Virus record (IMG/VR): IMGVR_UViG_2558860170_000008
Reading direction: 5' to 3' (one strand)
DNA: 53,298 bases
Source: a virus
Lineage: Duplodnaviria > Heunggongvirae > Uroviricota > Caudoviricetes
The notes beneath the pieces were generated by a model. That model did not search any database. It was given only the letters and a program-made list of their open reading frames with translations, and was not told the origin of the DNA. Positions 26,574 through 49,318 of the stretch are shown in pieces (the stretch's first letter is position 1; the number at the start of each line of letters is the position of its first letter). Position numbers and translations under genes: made by a program.

Positions 26574-28146
26574 CCAGCATCCCCTTCATTTCCGCAGCAA
26601 ACATGGCATCACTGAGCAGCGTCATCAGGCGGGAATCATCCATTTCACGATAAAGGGCAGGCAGGTCTGCCAGCGCATCCGCCAGCCCCCGCGTTCTGAT
26701 GGCATCAATGACCGGCTCCAGTACCGGGTCGATGGCCTCCTGTAAGCGGCGGGCAGGCACCGCGTCCCCCATATCATCCAGTTCATCACGCGGCGTGCTT
26801 TTCGCTTCCGGCAGTCTGGCTGACAGCGCCGTCTGCTCTGTTTTTTCCTGTTTTTCCGGTGGTGTTTCCCTGTCGGTCTGAGCCGGTTCATTGCCACTCT
26901 GACGGACACGGAATATGGCTTCACCGGGCGTGGGCTGCGGAATACCGGTCTGCTCACGTATCCAGGGATCAGAAATATCCATCCCCGTACTGAGCTGCAT
27001 CACCGCACTGGTGATTTTGGTGATATCACCTGGTTCTTTTGTCTGGAAGCAGATACGTGGCAGACGGCGGATATCAATAGTGTGCGTGGTGTTCAGGGCG
27101 TACAGCGGATACACCAGATCGCGGTTCAGGGTTGCAGCCAGCTGTCGTAAATCAGAATCCCTGATTTCCCGGCGCACCTCGTTATGTACCTCACCCAGTG
27201 AGCGCGCGCCTTTGTCTCCGGCTTCCGTGGTCAGCGTGCCGCCGAGTATTGCTTTGGAGATGGAACGCTCCCCCCACGAAATCATGGTTTCAAACGGATC
27301 GGCCTGACCGTTCGCTGCCGCCTGAAACTCCAGCGACATCCCGGCCGGGATGATCCCGCCTGTACGTCGCCCGATATCCATCACCGCCCGCATCAGGGCA
27401 CTTTTCTGCTCCGGTGTTGCCCCGGACGGGTATTTCCCGACCTTCATCGGCAGGCCGTACACCTCCAGAAATTCCGCCAGATCGCGCACGGAATAGTTTT
27501 TGAAAATGAACGGCCAGATAAGCGTCCGGACAAGCCCGGTTGCACCACCGTAACCGGTGCGTGAACGCGACTGATGCACTATCCAGCCAAAGGGCTGAAA
27601 CGCCACCCCGGAATGGCTGCCGTCACGCAGCCGCAGTTCGCTCAAATCATCCGGGTTAAGGCAGAAATGCCCGCTGTCACGCCAGCGGATGGCGCGGATG
27701 ATGTGCATTTTACCGAGCATCCCGTGCTCAATTTCCATGCAGGAATAGCCCTTCAGGATGGCATCCGTGGCGTCAAACAGCATGGCATCAAACCAGTCTG
27801 CGGAATGCAGATATTCGTCGAGCATTTCCGCGTCCTTTTTCTCATTCGCGCTGGCGTTCGGTGGCGGCTCAATACTCCATGGCACCCCCTGAATGGCAAG
27901 ACGTCGCTTGCCCAGCTCCGCAAAAAGGTGGGTGTCCTTTTCTTCAATATCAGCGGCCAGATCGGACTGGGCAATCAGATCGCCACGTTCAGCCCCGCGA
28001 AGGCACTGCGCCGCCCGGTTCGGGGTGATACCCGAAGCCGGATGTTCAATATAACGGCTGGCAATCTGCGGAATATCCAGCGCGGCACTCTGCATCTCCG
28101 GGTCAAAGGAGAAAGGTTTTCCGTCAGTATCAATGATGCGTCCCAC
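26557..28146 (-). CDS. Portal protein (Mu H/gp29-like)
   Basis: 529-aa ORF directly downstream of the large terminase gene. Confidence 0.9.
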   Translation of the reverse strand: MGRIIDTDGKPFSFDPEMQSAALDIPQIASRYIEHPASGITPNRAAQCLRGAERGDLIAQSDLAADIEEKDTHLFAELGKRRLAIQGVPWSIEPPPNASANEKKDAEMLDEYLHSADWFDAMLFDATDAILKGYSCMEIEHGMLGKMHIIRAIRWRDSGHFCLNPDDLSELRLRDGSHSGVAFQPFGWIVHQSRSRTGYGGATGLVRTLIWPFIFKNYSVRDLAEFLEVYGLPMKVGKYPSGATPEQKSALMRAVMDIGRRTGGIIPAGMSLEFQAAANGQADPFETMISWGERSISKAILGGTLTTEAGDKGARSLGEVHNEVRREIRDSDLRQLAATLNRDLVYPLYALNTTHTIDIRRLPRICFQTKEPGDITKITSAVMQLSTGMDISDPWIREQTGIPQPTPGEAIFRVRQSGNEPAQTDRETPPEKQEKTEQTALSARLPEAKSTPRDELDDMGDAVPARRLQEAIDPVLEPVIDAIRTRGLADALADLPALYREMDDSRLMTLLSDAMFAAEMKGMLDDTGD

Positions 28147-29810
28147 TACCAGCCCCCCCGATCAAATTCATGATATGCCTCATCGTCATCACGATAACCG
28201 CCCTCCATTGCCCGCGACCGCTCCGGTAGCGCCTGACAGGCTGATTCATCCAGGATGAAGCCCTCCATGTATGACGCCCGGTTTGCCATACAGAGCGCCA
28301 CGGCAAAATCACCATGGCGGCGGGCGTTCGCAGCCGTTGCGTTCTGGTCCTTCGTGCGCCCCTTGTCGATTTGCGGGATACCATTCACTACCTTCACATG
28401 GCGCAAATCATCAAGCGTGGTCTGATGGCGGGCGACGAGGATATTCTGATCTTCAAACTCGGCTTTCAGTTTTGGCATCCACTCGCCGTACCACTTCGGC
28501 GACAACATCACGCAGTCGATGATGTCCGGGCCAAAGGCCAGCAGTGCGGCCTCTGCCAGATAGCCGCCGTTACCGGTGGCGTCGAACGCCGCACCGACCA
28601 GCGCCGGAACGCGGGTCAGGATGTACATCATCACCTGTTCCTGCTGGGCATACGGCAGGTTGCGCAGCTCCACGCGAAACACCTCGCGCTTTGCCAGGGA
28701 TTCGGTGATTTCCAGCAGCACAAAGCAGGACAGGTCACCGGTGCGGGCAAAGTCTTCCCCGAAGCTGAAGCGGGAACGGGGATTTAATTTCTCTAAAAGC
28801 GGTTTTAAATGTTCTTCACACCAGGTTAAAACTTCCGATTCACGCAGCCATGCGGCACGGCTGATGAAGTTGTCCGGGGCTTCAAACGTCAGAATCGGGA
28901 TGTCGCGGATCATCGCCATTTCAATAAGCGCGTGGGGGATATAGGCACCGCCGGATTTTTTCGGGATACAGCCGTATTCCTCGTCGGCATCCTCACGGGT
29001 CGGGGCATTTTTGTAGAGATCATCACGCCATTTCTGCTCGCTTTCCGGTGACCATTCCTGATCGGTGACGTAACAGATACGACGGTACAGCCCGTCCGCA
29101 ATGGCATCATCCAGGGTTATGCGGTGGACGCTGTAATCCTTGCGCCCCTCGCGGGCTTCCTGAATGTACTGATTAAACAGATTATCGACGCCGTTATGCG
29201 TGGAGATAATACGCACGCGCGCGCCCCACATAGTGAGCGCCATTGCCGCCTTGAGAAGTTCATCCAGCGACTCGTGGAACGCGGCTTCATCAATCACCAC
29301 ATCCCCCTGAAGGCCGCGCAGGTTTGACGGACGGGAAGACAATGCCTGAATTTTGAATCCACTGTTCGGAAAGCGGATCATGTAGGTCAAAATTTCTTCT
29401 TTTTTATCCCGATCCCAGAATGTCTGCTCATACACATCAGCATCTGCCAGCTGGTTAAAGGCACGGGAGAACAGCGCGCAGGCAGAAATATATTCCAGCG
29501 CCATCTCCTGCTTTGATCCCACATAAAACACATTGCGGCCACCACGACGCTTCGGTTTTGCAGCAGTAATGACGTTACGCCCGGCTTCCGCCCAGGTAAG
29601 ACCGGTGCGGCGGGATTTTTCCGCAATGCAGACCTGACTTTCATCCTCAAACCAGCGGGCCTGATAATCCAGAAACACCGGCATATCACCGGGCAAATCA
29701 AGTCTGTCCGGCACATCCACGCCCAGCAGGGCTTTTTCACCGGACAGATCAATTTTGCGGGGAGGCGTCATTTGTATCAGTGAAGGAGACGTTTCTTTGG
29801 CTTTGTTCAT
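28146..29810 (-). CDS. Terminase large subunit
   Basis: 554-aa ORF; position and size fit the Mu-type large terminase. Confidence 0.9.
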   Translation of the reverse strand: MNKAKETSPSLIQMTPPRKIDLSGEKALLGVDVPDRLDLPGDMPVFLDYQARWFEDESQVCIAEKSRRTGLTWAEAGRNVITAAKPKRRGGRNVFYVGSKQEMALEYISACALFSRAFNQLADADVYEQTFWDRDKKEEILTYMIRFPNSGFKIQALSSRPSNLRGLQGDVVIDEAAFHESLDELLKAAMALTMWGARVRIISTHNGVDNLFNQYIQEAREGRKDYSVHRITLDDAIADGLYRRICYVTDQEWSPESEQKWRDDLYKNAPTREDADEEYGCIPKKSGGAYIPHALIEMAMIRDIPILTFEAPDNFISRAAWLRESEVLTWCEEHLKPLLEKLNPRSRFSFGEDFARTGDLSCFVLLEITESLAKREVFRVELRNLPYAQQEQVMMYILTRVPALVGAAFDATGNGGYLAEAALLAFGPDIIDCVMLSPKWYGEWMPKLKAEFEDQNILVARHQTTLDDLRHVKVVNGIPQIDKGRTKDQNATAANARRHGDFAVALCMANRASYMEGFILDESACQALPERSRAMEGGYRDDDEAYHEFDRGGW

Positions 29811-30058
29811 CAGGCTTTACCTGTCAGAATGCTTTTGATTCGGAACTCAAGCTCTTCAGTCATCACGTCCACGCCACTCAACTCATCAGTGACAGCCTCT
29901 GCCAGCAGCGAATGCAGTTGTTCCAGGGATATTTCCCCGGCAATGCTGAGTTCAGTCAACTCACGACACGCTTTTATGGTTTCAGGAGGTAACTGTGTTG
30001 CAAGACTGAATGCCTTCTGATGAGCACTACTCATCAGTGAGCGGTTATCTGTTACCAC
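29810..30058 (-). CDS. Small protein; divergent paralog of the C-terminal tail of the small terminase-like protein
   Basis: C-terminus EAVTDELSGVDVMTEELEFRIKSILTGKA versus NAVTDELRGVDGMSEQIEFRIRQMLLGKA at the end of 30069..30650. Confidence 0.5.
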   Translation of the reverse strand: MVTDNRSLMSSAHQKAFSLATQLPPETIKACRELTELSIAGEISLEQLHSLLAEAVTDELSGVDVMTEELEFRIKSILTGKA

Positions 30059-30068
30059 GATTCACCTC

Positions 30069-30650
30069 CTACGCCTTACCAAGCAGCATCTGCCTGATAC
30101 GGAATTCTATCTGCTCGCTCATGCCATCCACGCCGCGCAACTCGTCGGTGACGGCGTTCGCCATCTCTTCAGCAAATGCGGCCCGGATTTCTTTTTCACG
30201 CTTAATGCTGCGCTCGGCGGCACTTTCCGCACGCTGTGCCGACAGGAGGATGTCCTTAATAAGGCGCATATCCACATCGCTGTCGCTGTTCAGGGATTCG
30301 GTGGCAGCACGCAGACGGCGGTACATCAGGGCGCGGGACATTTCCAGAATCAGTGCCGTGGTTTCACCGGTCGGCTTGTCCCCCAGTTCGGCCATCATGG
30401 CTTTTGTCTGCTCGCGTAAATCACGCAGGTTACGGGCAATCAGCTCATTACGGGAGGCCTCCCGGCTGATGGCCGCCGGTGAAAGCTGCTGCTCTTCCGG
30501 CAGACCCGCCTCACGGATCAGGCGGTTGATTTCCTCGCGGATCTGGACCTGCGTCAGGCGTTTTTCACGCAGCATTTCCAGCAGCGGCTTACGGATGCTG
30601 TCGGGGAGCAAATCCACCTTGCGTACACGGCCACGCGTTGGCTTATCCAT
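30069..30650 (-). CDS. Terminase small subunit-like DNA-binding protein (Mu gp27-like)
   Basis: 193-aa basic protein upstream of the large terminase. Confidence 0.7.
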   Translation of the reverse strand: MDKPTRGRVRKVDLLPDSIRKPLLEMLREKRLTQVQIREEINRLIREAGLPEEQQLSPAAISREASRNELIARNLRDLREQTKAMMAELGDKPTGETTALILEMSRALMYRRLRAATESLNSDSDVDMRLIKDILLSAQRAESAAERSIKREKEIRAAFAEEMANAVTDELRGVDGMSEQIEFRIRQMLLGKA

Positions 30651-30652
30651 CG

Positions 30653-30943
30653 TTACCCCCTTGCGCGTGGTTTCTTCACACCCGGAACAGTGGCACGACC
30701 TTCCGCCACATCCTGACCCCGGCCGGTCAGTTCAGCGATGAAATAACCGTTAACAAGCGTGCGCTTACGCACCAGTCCCTGCTCGGCAAGCCAGGCAATG
30801 TGGGTGTGAACGGTGTCGCGGGACACACGGTGGCCGTAATCATCCAGGCAGTCCTGAAGCACGGATTCGCCCAGTTCGCCGTTGTAATCCGCCAGCGACC
30901 GCAGAATGACAAGACGCTGATCTTCAGTAATGAAATCACTCAT
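30653..30943 (-). CDS. Hypothetical protein (Mu gp26-like position)
   Basis: 96-aa ORF with ATG start. Confidence 0.5.
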   Translation of the reverse strand: MSDFITEDQRLVILRSLADYNGELGESVLQDCLDDYGHRVSRDTVHTHIAWLAEQGLVRKRTLVNGYFIAELTGRGQDVAEGRATVPGVKKPRARG

Positions 30944-33767: not shown

Positions 33768-34178
33768 ATGAAAATAGATTACGATGAAGTATTAAGTATT
33801 CTCACAACTTTTCAGGATGCTGAAACACCTTTCCTTACACTACAGGATCTGGGCATGGCTGAGGCAGAAGGAGAGGAAAAGGATAAAAAAGTTTTTCATC
33901 TTATGCTTCTCGCTGATAATGGCTCAATTGTTAATGGTGATATGCAGTCAGAAACACCCAAATATATTGGTTTCTTTTTCCATTCTCTGGGCGTTGGTTT
34001 CAGAAACACGCCCATTATGCTTACCCAGCAGGGGCATGATTTAGCTAACGCCCTGAGAAAAAAACCAATCCTTGAAAGAATCAAAAAGGAGTTTACAGAC
34101 GCACCATTTGATCTAATTAAAGAAGTTACCAAATCAATGTTAACCAGGTTCGTCAAAGAACGTATTGGGATTGACTGA
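33768..34178 (+). CDS. Hypothetical protein on the opposite strand within the early operon; low-GC insert
   Basis: 136-aa ORF, ATG start, markedly AT-rich relative to flanking prophage DNA. Confidence 0.5.
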   Translation: MKIDYDEVLSILTTFQDAETPFLTLQDLGMAEAEGEEKDKKVFHLMLLADNGSIVNGDMQSETPKYIGFFFHSLGVGFRNTPIMLTQQGHDLANALRKKPILERIKKEFTDAPFDLIKEVTKSMLTRFVKERIGID

Positions 34179-48108: not shown

Positions 48109-48991
<883 letters not shown>

Positions 48992-48995
<4 letters not shown>

Positions 48996-49318
48996 TTTTT
49001 CCAGAGGCGGTCAAACTCCGCCTTCGCAAAATAAGCGGAAGCCTGGCGAAGGATATCGTTACTGCGGCGCAGTTCACGATTTTCACGCTCCAGCTCTTTC
49101 AGACGCTGACGTTCAGCGGTGGTGAGCCCTCCATCACCGCCCCCGGTATCCCGCTCATGCTGGCGAACCCGGACACGCAGAGTCTCCGGCGTACAGCCAA
49201 TCTTTGGAGCAATGGAACAAATTGTCGCCCATTGTGAGTCATATTCGCCCTGACTTTCCAGAACCATACGGACTGCCCGTTGACGGACTTCGGGGGAAAA
49301 ACGAGTATTTTTAGTCAT
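48992..49318 (-). CDS. IS629-like OrfA
   Basis: 108-aa [45 protein letters not shown]...; ATG at 49316-49318. Confidence 0.85.

Follow-up and report, generated by a model that had tools for sequence, protein, structure and literature searches.

The open reading frame ORF82, which lies between the genes for the small and the large terminase of a Mu-like E. coli prophage, is a chimera of two unrelated parts. It is probably a recombination scar that is translated and retains the native stop/start coupling to the large terminase gene, and not a working decoy of the small terminase.

Every gene in the terS-terL region of the window (the whole stretch of 53,298 nucleotides that was analysed) is encoded on the minus strand. 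As context only, a gene for a gp26-like winged-HTH protein (30653..30943) lies 5' of the small terminase gene; the protein matched NF050184 (VpaChn25_0724 family, E=3e-34) and phrog_436, and its counterpart is Mu_26. It is followed by the gene for the gp27-type small terminase TerS (30069..30650, 193 aa), the last 31 codons of which, recognized by their conserved motif, are called tail A (MANAVTDELRGVDGMSEQIEFRIRQMLLGKA, 30072..30164). Direct reading of the sequence revealed a spacer of 10 nt (30059..30068) with a strong Shine-Dalgarno (SD) sequence for ORF82, i.e., TAGGAGGTGAATC-GTG. ORF82 itself (29810..30058) starts with GTG, encodes 82 aa, belongs to phrog_30922, and is found in RefSeq as 'hypothetical protein' WP_000255658.1. 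Codons 1-51 (29906..30058) form an N-module, which is similar to a Salmonella ORF, and codons 52-82 (29813..29905) form tail B (LAEAVTDELSGVDVMTEELEFRIKSILTGKA), which was found by BLASTP against gp27 and is a diverged copy of a gp27 tail. The last gene encodes the large terminase TerL (28146..29810, 554 aa), a homologue of Mu gp28/E. Its N-terminal leader (codons 1-17, 29760..29810) is hypervariable and is part of the variable cassette of the junction. The TerL start and the ORF82 stop overlap in the sequence TGATG.

The gp27-like protein matched PF11985 (Phage_Mu_Gp27, E=3e-33, 116 bits with a cutoff of 28) and phrog_426 ('terminase small subunit', E=9e-55), and it is 57% identical to gp27/D of Mu. 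TerL matched phrog_2 (E=2e-43) and is 72% identical to Mu gp28. An alignment of seven gp27 tails from Pseudomonas, Vibrio, Mu, E. coli and Salmonella revealed the motif E.RG.DG.SE..E.RI...L.GKA with 14 invariant positions. The tail is still 76-89% identical in Pseudomonas and Vibrio phages, and tail A is the same in the locus variants L011 and L020. The Mu-type terminase is not known to have been dissected biochemically, a literature search yielded nothing on the Mu gp27 tail or on ORF82, no gp27 homologue with a solved structure was found, and the AF2 model of gp27 was too poor for use (pLDDT 51). A profile search of genome contigs with the gp27 alignment returned two loci only, the search patterns being over-specific, and a TerL search among viral contigs led back to those already found.

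Residues 52-82 of ORF82 are homologous to the tail of gp27 (gene D of Mu; PF11985, DUF3486). They aligned without gaps with residues 163-193 of the neighbouring gp27 (BLASTP, E=1e-12), with 20 of the 31 residues identical (65%) and 26 positives; the identity to the Mu tail was 57% (E=7e-9), and among the gp27s listed the best tail match had 22 of 31 identical residues. A small HMM made from gp27 tails matched tail B with E=1e-12 to 1e-16. The earlier note had put the identity to the last ~30 residues of the small terminase at about 70%, which is close to the value found, and the pairwise alignment of the C-termini that it proposed as a check placed the similarity well above chance. It had also named the ORF a stand-alone paralog of the tail. 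This is true for the last 31 residues, but no relation to gp27 was detected for residues 1-51, and the name is incomplete because ORF82 is a chimera.

Tail B keeps 10-11 of the 14 invariant positions, and three to four are lost. The sequence RG.DG.SE is replaced by SG.DV.TE or SS.DV.TE: the exchanges R to S, G to V and S to T are present in all ORF82 haplotypes, G to S is present in about half of them, and one haplotype carries an L to P exchange in the last helix. The distal part E..E.RI...L.GKA is kept, which counts against a scar. The gp27 tail and tail B have the same predicted layout of a helix end, a loop and a short helix, and the same terminal sequence ...GKA-stop, with which ORF82 overlaps the TerL start. 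On the DNA level the 93 nt of tails A and B have an identity of 66-67%, in register and with an offset of exactly 259 nt, and their synonymous sites are saturated (pS=0.78). The tail of E. coli prophages without ORF82 (L001-type) is closer to tail B, with 77% identical nucleotides and pS=0.42. The saturation indicates that different alleles were exchanged and that no recent duplication had taken place.

The N-module has a different origin. It is 35% identical to a Salmonella ORF of 65 aa in the same slot (BLASTP, E=2e-7), and it resembles P0012 (67 aa) and a 57-aa ORF of Tongde (E=1e-4 to 1e-5). A profile search with these junction ORFs retrieved 47 clusters, every one of which is annotated as hypothetical. 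They are located between gp27 and TerL in Mu-like phages of Salmonella, E. coli and Yersinia and form an unnamed family of 'hypothetical proteins' with size classes of 65, 87, 56-58 and 67 aa. ORF82 fits this family in sequence over its N-terminal ~50 residues (LxxSxAHxxAF ... CR ... IAxG) and also in position, i.e., it starts 7-10 nt past the gp27 stop, has its own SD and lies upstream of TerL. The Salmonella ORF matched phrog_30922 with E=0.007, and ORF82 matched it over the full length (residues 1-82 on profile positions 1-82, E=1.1e-55). The gp27-tail HMM matched solely the 82-aa E. coli subgroup (E<=1e-12), and for all other junction ORFs E was >0.3. Homology between the N-module and the gp27 body (residues 1-160) was not detected with hhalign (probability 0.1, E=0.56).

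AF2 predicted three helices for the N-module (pLDDT ~80) and, with moderate confidence (pLDDT 72), a small helical domain for the whole ORF82, which counts against a scar. A Foldseek comparison of the ORF82 model with the PDB gave no match (best E=1.2), and the junction-ORF family as a whole had no match in Pfam, in NCBIfam or among structures. ORF82 matched no Pfam family at E<=0.1, PF11985 included, and its C-terminus does not conform to the conserved motif of the gp27 tails. Apart from the E. coli family and P0012, an exhaustive HMMER search with ORF82 retrieved just two proteins, of 426 and 269 aa, which are repetitive and match through low-complexity repeats; these matches were judged spurious.

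ORF82 together with its spacer comprises exactly 259 nt, and this segment is absent from the closest phage records. Of 5426 complete E. coli genomes, 24-25 carry the ORF, and it is missing in about 205 of the 230 E. coli genomes with this prophage type. The comparison with Mu and D108 that the earlier note had suggested was performed, and both phages, as well as SfMu, are without ORF82. Between the window and a relative without the ORF, gp27 codons 1-162 are 96.3% and TerL codons 18-333 are 96.8% identical, whereas the values are 77-78% for the tails and 59% (nt) for TerL codons 1-17. The comparison with variant L011, which carries an ORF of 67 codons (ORF67), gave 95.3% for gp27 and 96.2% for tail A plus spacer, then 77.8% for codons 1-36 of the junction ORF, then an unalignable part, and then 97.3% for TerL. 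The junction is thus a hypervariable cassette between flanks of 95-97% identity, and different TerL leaders are found in every state of the junction. In L020 and L025 the junction ORF is reduced to the SD and four codons, a mini-ORF of nine codons that overlaps the TerL start, which indicates that the slot is dispensable. The fusion with the tail happened a single time, within one narrow E. coli lineage. The earlier note had suggested a recombination scar left by an exchange of modules, and this has good support from the clean 259-nt indel in this cassette, and also from the saturation of the tails and from the family of N-modules without tail elsewhere. A recent deletion by recombination between tails A and B as the origin of the allele without ORF82 was considered and rejected: the tail of that allele has an A-like 5' half and a B-like 3' half, but at synonymous sites the 5' half is equidistant to both (pS 0.47 versus 0.44), and the pattern is due to amino-acid conservation, not to a fresh crossover.

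The selection on ORF82 is relaxed. The dN/dS values are ~0.69 for the N-module, ~0.57 for tail B and 0.55 for the whole ORF, compared with ~0.02 for the gp27 tail and ~0.04 for both the gp27 body and TerL codons 21-300. Unlike gp27, ORF82 lacks the gp27 body, has lost RG.DG.SE, and has a tail with a dN/dS about 25-fold higher. For the TerL leader (codons 1-17) the value is ~1.5, calculated from 12 changes only. One gp27 protein accession is common to five strains, whereas their ORF82 accessions all differ. The whole-ORF value is nominally below 1 (p=0.006), with a count that is possibly inflated by recombination. The ORF has 82 codons and is intact in all 19 loci, representing 11 haplotypes, which counts against a scar; full neutrality would predict ~2.4-2.9 stop mutations, and the probability of finding none is 0.055-0.09. 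The ORF82 peptide is under very weak constraint and evolves nearly neutrally, and for this reason it is most likely a scar. In the Salmonella junction ORF, dN/dS is 0.33, indicating some purifying selection; a genuine function of the family, possibly shared by ORF82, is therefore conceivable.

The SD of ORF82 (GGAGGTGA) is perfect, conserved and located 5 nt upstream of the conserved start codon; such a strong SD counts against a scar. The 10-nt spacer is conserved in all variants with ORF82, ORF67 or the mini-ORF, and the GTG of the window is an ATG in relatives. The ATG of TerL is reached or crossed by the ends of ORF82, of the junction ORFs of 65 and 87 aa and of the mini-ORF. Phages of this group can do without the coupling, as the gap before TerL is 119 nt in L011 and 7 nt in Mu. 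A sigma-70-like promoter was not found between 29500 and 31000, and a convincing terminator was not found around ORF82; four terminator-like matches are inside the coding sequences of gp27, a gp25-like protein (DUF2730) or TerL, three of them on the non-coding strand. Folding of the RNA at the two start codons showed nothing unusual (z=+0.97 and -1.35), and a hairpin of 5 bp that covers the TerL SD together with the ORF82 stop is too weak for interpretation.

According to the preferred explanation, a mosaic recombination joint at the terS-terL junction would have created ORF82. The first ~51 codons would have been donated by the small, fast-evolving junction-ORF family, and the last 31 codons would be what remained of the 3' end when a second gp27 allele was displaced. 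This allele would have been closest to that of E. coli prophages without ORF82, and it would have brought its own TerL start region. The joint would be in frame by chance, and, as a result, ORF82 would be translated within the late operon and end on the native TGATG. Ending there, it would deliver ribosomes to the TerL start, as gp27 itself would do in the relatives without the ORF. ORF82 would most likely no longer perform the ancestral job of the tail, presumably TerL docking by analogy with lambda and P22, and would be dispensable. Of these points, the chimeric makeup, the indel with its mosaic pattern, the age of the split between the tails, the relaxed selection and the lost motif are shown by the sequences; translation, the coupling and the failure to bind TerL are inferred.

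A working decoy or modulator is an unlikely alternative. ORF82 would be expressed from its strong SD, and its tail would bind whatever the gp27 tail binds, presumably TerL. It would in this way titrate the assembly of the terminase or set its timing, or else disturb other Mu-like phages in the same host. The extraordinary conservation of the gp27 tail argues for an important interaction peptide; judged from the conservation between Pseudomonas and E. coli and the low dN/dS, the key peptide of Mu-type small terminases is probably formed by their last ~24 residues. In lambda (gpNu1 and gpA) and P22 (gp3 residues 140-162 with gp2 residues 1-58) it is the flexible C-terminal tail of TerS that docks the N-terminus of TerL (review PMC9611059), and tail B is clearly homologous, retains the terminal helix and most conserved positions, and stays in an open frame in all copies. 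Also here a TerS C-terminal peptide is encoded beside the TerL N-terminus, and the tail and the TerL leader form one variable cassette. The mechanism would resemble that of satellite terminase interference proteins such as the SaPI small terminase and PICI Rpp, which are small, satellite-encoded and exploit the TerS/TerL interface; but ORF82 is phage-encoded and is not known to be related to them in sequence. Against a decoy stand the relaxed selection on tail B compared with the true tail, the destruction of RG.DG.SE in every haplotype with further losses in some, and the single origin in a narrow lineage, about 90% of the sister prophages being without ORF82. In addition, a peptide that competes in large amounts with an essential interaction should be costly, yet gp27 and TerL of the phages with ORF82 are still under strong purifying selection. 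An allele-specific pairing of tail and TerL leader, as known for lambda and phage 21, is unlikely and not evident from the sequences of the Mu-type terminase, because the tail is highly conserved while TerL residues 1-17 are hypervariable; moreover, two different leaders are found in combination with tail A.

It is also rather improbable that the junction ORF is a genuine packaging accessory factor working with TerS and TerL and ORF82 a Rosetta-stone fusion, which might act as an adaptor that tethers this factor to the terminase via its gp27-type tail. Members of the family always lie between terS and terL, each behind an SD of its own and usually with a stop that overlaps the TerL start, and the Salmonella dN/dS, the conserved length classes and the three predicted helices are in accordance with a function. 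However, the family is confined to Salmonella, E. coli and Yersinia, Mu, D108 and most relatives have no member of it, and it is fast-evolving and without any match in Pfam, NCBIfam or structures; it is reduced to a nine-codon remnant in L020 and L025, and the N-module of ORF82 itself is nearly neutral. A wider version, for which the odds are similarly low, would treat the junction as a diversifying cassette for a hitherto unrecognised small terminase-associated protein, with ORF82 as a fusion to the TerS docking tail and as an expressed adaptor or decoy that binds the terminase and tunes packaging or excludes co-resident Mu-like phages. If an adaptor or decoy were real, ORF82 would be a natural probe of the TerS-TerL interface of transposable phages.

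It is highly doubtful that ORF82 is no gene at all, but an untranslated leftover that is open by chance. The near-neutral dN/dS would be compatible with this, and the lack of stop codons is no more than slightly unexpected. On the other hand, the SD is perfect and conserved together with the start, the late operon is tightly packed and co-directional, the length is constant at 82 codons, and in the metagenomic variants P0002 and P0003 in-frame deletions of 2-3 codons have kept the frame. An in-situ tandem duplication of the gp27 3' end as a 259-nt unit, the upstream part of which would later have diverged to give a new N-terminus, is very nearly discounted: the exact in-register spacing of the tails and an identity of 32.5% over the upstream 166 nt (25 +/- 3.5% after shuffling, z ~2.2) would fit, but it is largely refuted by a tail pS of 0.78 when haplotypes differ by a dS of only 0.1-0.25, by N-module homologues without tail in other phages, by the negative hhalign result against gp27, and by the closer synonymous-site similarity of tail B to another gp27 allele.

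With the scar as the preferred reading, a striking local paralogy becomes an ordinary product of phage mosaicism with identifiable donor modules, which is mostly a clarification. Like mosaic joints and morons, ORF82 is a small lineage-specific insert between conserved genes with near-identical flanks, the slot has several alternative states, and the frame at the joint is chimeric. A classical moron has its own promoter and terminator. In contrast, ORF82 appears from its sequence context to have neither, to be embedded in the late operon and to be translationally linked to TerL. Since nature provides in ORF82 a copy of the tail under weak constraint, it offers a yardstick for the constraints on the real gp27 tail. 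The terS-terL junction of enterobacterial Mu-like prophages holds small ORFs of an uncharacterised family and, next to them, a hypervariable TerL leader.

ORF82, the 82-aa ORF between the gp27-type small terminase and the large terminase (TerL), is real and is explained as a chimeric reading frame located at a mosaic joint of the phage. The region belongs to the late operon of the Mu-like prophage, in which all genes are on the minus strand. A gp25-like gene (DUF2730) is followed by a gp26-like winged HTH gene (30653-30943, -), the gp27 gene (30069-30650, -; 193 aa, 57% identity with Mu gp27, gene D), a 10-nt spacer, ORF82 (29810-30058, -; GTG start), the TerL gene (28146-29810, -; 554 aa, 72% identity with Mu gp28, gene E) and a Mu-type portal gene. 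The spacer (TAG-GAGGTGAATC-GTG) carries a near-perfect Shine-Dalgarno (SD) sequence 5 nt from the ORF82 start, and the stop codon of ORF82 overlaps with the start codon of TerL (GCC TGA TG). A scan of the region revealed no promoter and no credible terminator inside it, and RNA folding showed nothing remarkable.

The earlier note had described ORF82 as a stand-alone paralog of the gp27 tail. This held for residues 52-82, whose gap-free alignment with gp27 residues 163-193 had 20 identical and 26 positive positions out of 31 (E=1e-12); they also aligned to the gp27 tail of Mu itself (57%, E=7e-9). It did not hold for codons 1-51 (the N-module), for which neither BLASTP nor profile comparison revealed any similarity to gp27. 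At the DNA level the last 31 codons of gp27 (tail A) and ORF82 codons 52-82 (tail B) were 66-67% identical over 93 nt, in register and at an offset of exactly 259 nt. ORF82 plus spacer is a clean 259-nt indel, which was absent from Mu and D108, the phages that had been proposed for comparison, as well as from SfMu and the closest deposited phage sequences, i.e., Mu-like inserts in two Stx phages (~90% identical). The 65 deposited phage genomes containing a gp27 tail had one each. The gp27/TerL type of the window was found in 230 of 5426 complete E. coli genomes, and the ORF82 segment in only 24-25 of these 230. Homologues of ORF82 (phrog_30922, function unknown) were confined to E. coli, with identities of 80-99%, and every fetched locus had the same order of gp27 (193-194 aa), 10-nt spacer, 82-codon ORF and TerL.

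Judged by sequence similarity, the N-terminal two thirds of ORF82 is a member of a gene family other than gp27, the junction ORFs of the terS-terL slot. An exhaustive HMMER search yielded P0012, a 67-aa protein at the same position that has the first ~36 codons in common with ORF82; it differs in its C-terminus and is separated by 119 nt of non-coding DNA from TerL, whose N-terminal leader is also different. In Yersinia phage Tongde the slot is occupied by a 57-aa ORF whose N-terminus is similar (E=1e-4 to 1e-5). A second inserted ORF of Tongde (vB_YpM_Tongde, L002 1733-1927, -; 64 aa, phrog_21398, function unknown) sits between the junction ORF and TerL, and thus the slot can carry two small genes. 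In Salmonella-type Mu-like prophages from IMG/VR the slot holds a 65-aa ORF (L037/L040, 3090-3287) or an 87-aa ORF (L039, about 3090-3353), both preceded by an SD of their own and overlapping TerL at an ATGA. The 65-aa form was 35% identical to ORF82 residues 4-46 (E=2e-7); it also matched phrog_220 ('minor head protein and DNA pilot') weakly, at profile positions 917-974 (E=2.5e-5). An N-module profile search retrieved 47 protein clusters, from Salmonella or E. coli only and all annotated as hypothetical, with lengths of 56-58, 65-67, 82 and 83-89 aa; a small number of further entries were truncated or partial. Only the 82-aa class matched a gp27-tail HMM (E=1e-12 to 1e-16; remaining classes E>0.3). 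The N-module had no match in Pfam or NCBIfam. In an AF2 model of ORF82 it was predicted to form three helices (pLDDT ~80), the tail being a floppy loop followed by a short helix, and the model had no neighbour in the PDB.

Compared with an ORF82-less relative (L001), nucleotide identity of the window was 96.3% in gp27 codons 1-162, 77-78% in the tails, 59% in TerL codons 1-17 and 96.8% in TerL codons 18-333. Compared with a variant carrying a 67-codon junction ORF (ORF67, L011), it was 95.3% in gp27 codons 1-162, 96.2% in tail A plus spacer, 77.8% in junction-ORF codons 1-36 and 97.3% in TerL from PPRKIDL onward, the segment after junction-ORF codon 36 being unalignable. Therefore, near-identical phages differ by a hypervariable cassette, which begins in mid-tail and ends around TerL codon 17. 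At least six cassette states were distinguished in 31 IMG/VR loci, surveyed together with L011 and the records of Mu and Tongde: a direct TGATG overlap of gp27 with TerL; ORF82; ORF67 followed by a gap; a 9-codon remnant (MATDWFSYE*), in which the SD and codons 1-4 of the junction ORF persist and the TerL start is still overlapped; the 65-aa and 87-aa ORFs with their ATGA overlaps; and short non-coding gaps of 7-43 nt. The remnant (L020 and L025, 3083-3115) appears to have arisen by deletion from the ORF67 state. TerL codons 1-17 (29760-29810, -) form a hypervariable leader ahead of the conserved PRKIDL motif; the relative with 59% identity in the leader was 97% identical in the rest of TerL, and the leader differed in each junction state, Pseudomonas and Vibrio phages included.

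The last 21-27 residues of the gp27 tail were 76-89% identical in Pseudomonas phages (JBD67, JBD25 and many others) and a Vibrio phage, and the pattern E.RG.DG.SE..E.RI...L.GKA was invariant in seven tails (Pseudomonas, Vibrio, Mu, E. coli, Salmonella). The motif is changed in ORF82: every haplotype had R->S, G->V and S->T, and roughly half also had G->S; L->P in the final helix occurred in one haplotype, and the terminal Ala was changed in several. The terminal GGTAAAGCC-TGA-TG, conserved at the DNA level as far as Pseudomonas and Vibrio phages, is also the SD-like element and overlap for TerL, and thus there is a non-protein reason to keep the very end of the tail. In these phage records (including L080-L082) the last ~24 residues of PF11985 small terminases are thus conserved across E. 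coli, Vibrio and Pseudomonas transposable phages, and the rest of the protein is divergent; this stretch is a candidate interaction peptide, apparently unstudied. According to a review (PMC9611059), TerS of lambda and P22 uses its C-terminus to bind the N-terminus of TerL; for Mu-type terminases such binding would be only an analogy. By-products worth noting are this deeply conserved motif of the gp27 tail, the family of uncharacterised junction ORFs and, in TerL, the hypervariable leader.

Selection was quantified by dN/dS counts along minimum spanning trees for 19 loci with 11 ORF82 haplotypes. The values were about 0.04 for the gp27 body, 0.02 for the gp27 tail and 0.04 for TerL codons 21-300; 0.69 for the N-module (p=0.14 against neutrality), 0.57 for the ORF82 tail (p=0.13) and 0.55 for the whole ORF82 (p=0.006, with counts possibly inflated by recombination); and about 1.5 for TerL codons 2-20, with only 12 changes. 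Five strains shared the gp27 accession WP_000360580.1 and each had a different ORF82 accession. The Salmonella 65-aa ORF had a dN/dS of 0.33, its flanks 0.05-0.06. No ORF82 copy contained a stop or frameshift (neutral expectation ~2.4-2.9 stops, P(none)=0.055-0.09), which is weak evidence for maintenance of the open frame as such. The earlier note had also considered a peptide competing for the TerL docking site. That the ORF82 peptide acts as a decoy or adaptor is possible, in line with its retained terminal helix, its intactness in every copy and its strong ribosome binding site, but disfavoured by a constraint relaxed roughly 25-fold versus the true tail, the narrow distribution and the ~90% of sister prophages without it.

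The other reading of the note, a recombination scar from module exchange, is supported, because ORF82 is chimeric, of single origin and weakly constrained and has lost the motif core. The simplest history would be a single illegitimate in-frame crossover, joining junction-ORF codon ~52 to codon ~163 of the resident gp27. The donor would have carried a junction ORF, its SD and a gp27 with tail A, and the resident tail and TerL start region would remain as the scar. As the joint is in frame, ORF82 would be translated from a strong SD and would have inherited the stop/start overlap, presumably the one normally coupling gp27 to TerL; this inherited coupling may be the main reason for the open frame. 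The haplotypes differed from each other by a dS of only 0.1-0.25, similar to the flanks, and among the 120 gp27 proteins listed no tail was closer to tail B than 22/31. A local tandem duplication was rejected, because 78% of synonymous sites differ between tails A and B of the same phage, i.e., they are saturated, and the ORF-less E. coli allele has a tail nearer to tail B (pS 0.42, 77% nt).

In some ORF82 haplotypes (L051 and L052, E. coli strains 48 and M18) the tail reads ...ESRIRGILTGKA and is thereby more similar to the gp27 tail that ORF-less prophages have (ESRIKGILLGKA). A gp27-TerL query had four matching places in strain 48, which suggests that the tails of co-resident prophages still recombine or undergo gene conversion with each other. 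Three places matched the region in E. coli JE86-ST05 (L049, NZ_AP022815.1), a genome with more than one Mu-like prophage copy. The one identical to the window lies in citF and has many 'frameshifted' CDS annotations, probably assembly errors; TerL is among them, though intact in the window. RefSeq annotates a 'tRNA-OTHER' in L049 between the virion-morphogenesis and head-morphogenesis genes, and ARAGORN found no tRNA in the window. P0016 (291 aa, one Logan assembly) is a gp26-gp27 read-through fusion of the wHTH protein and the small terminase, reflecting either a genuine fusion variant or an error in sequencing the stop codon of gp26. A DUF2513-family ORF in the early/middle region (33768-34178, +), annotated in the identical RefSeq copy, lies on the strand opposite to all neighbouring prophage genes and may be an inserted accessory gene. 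Lastly, an ALIL pseudoknot was identified at 48921-49037 (-; Rfam RF01497, 117 bits). This element serves for frameshifting in IS3-family insertion sequences and points to an IS element outside the prophage, in the flank.
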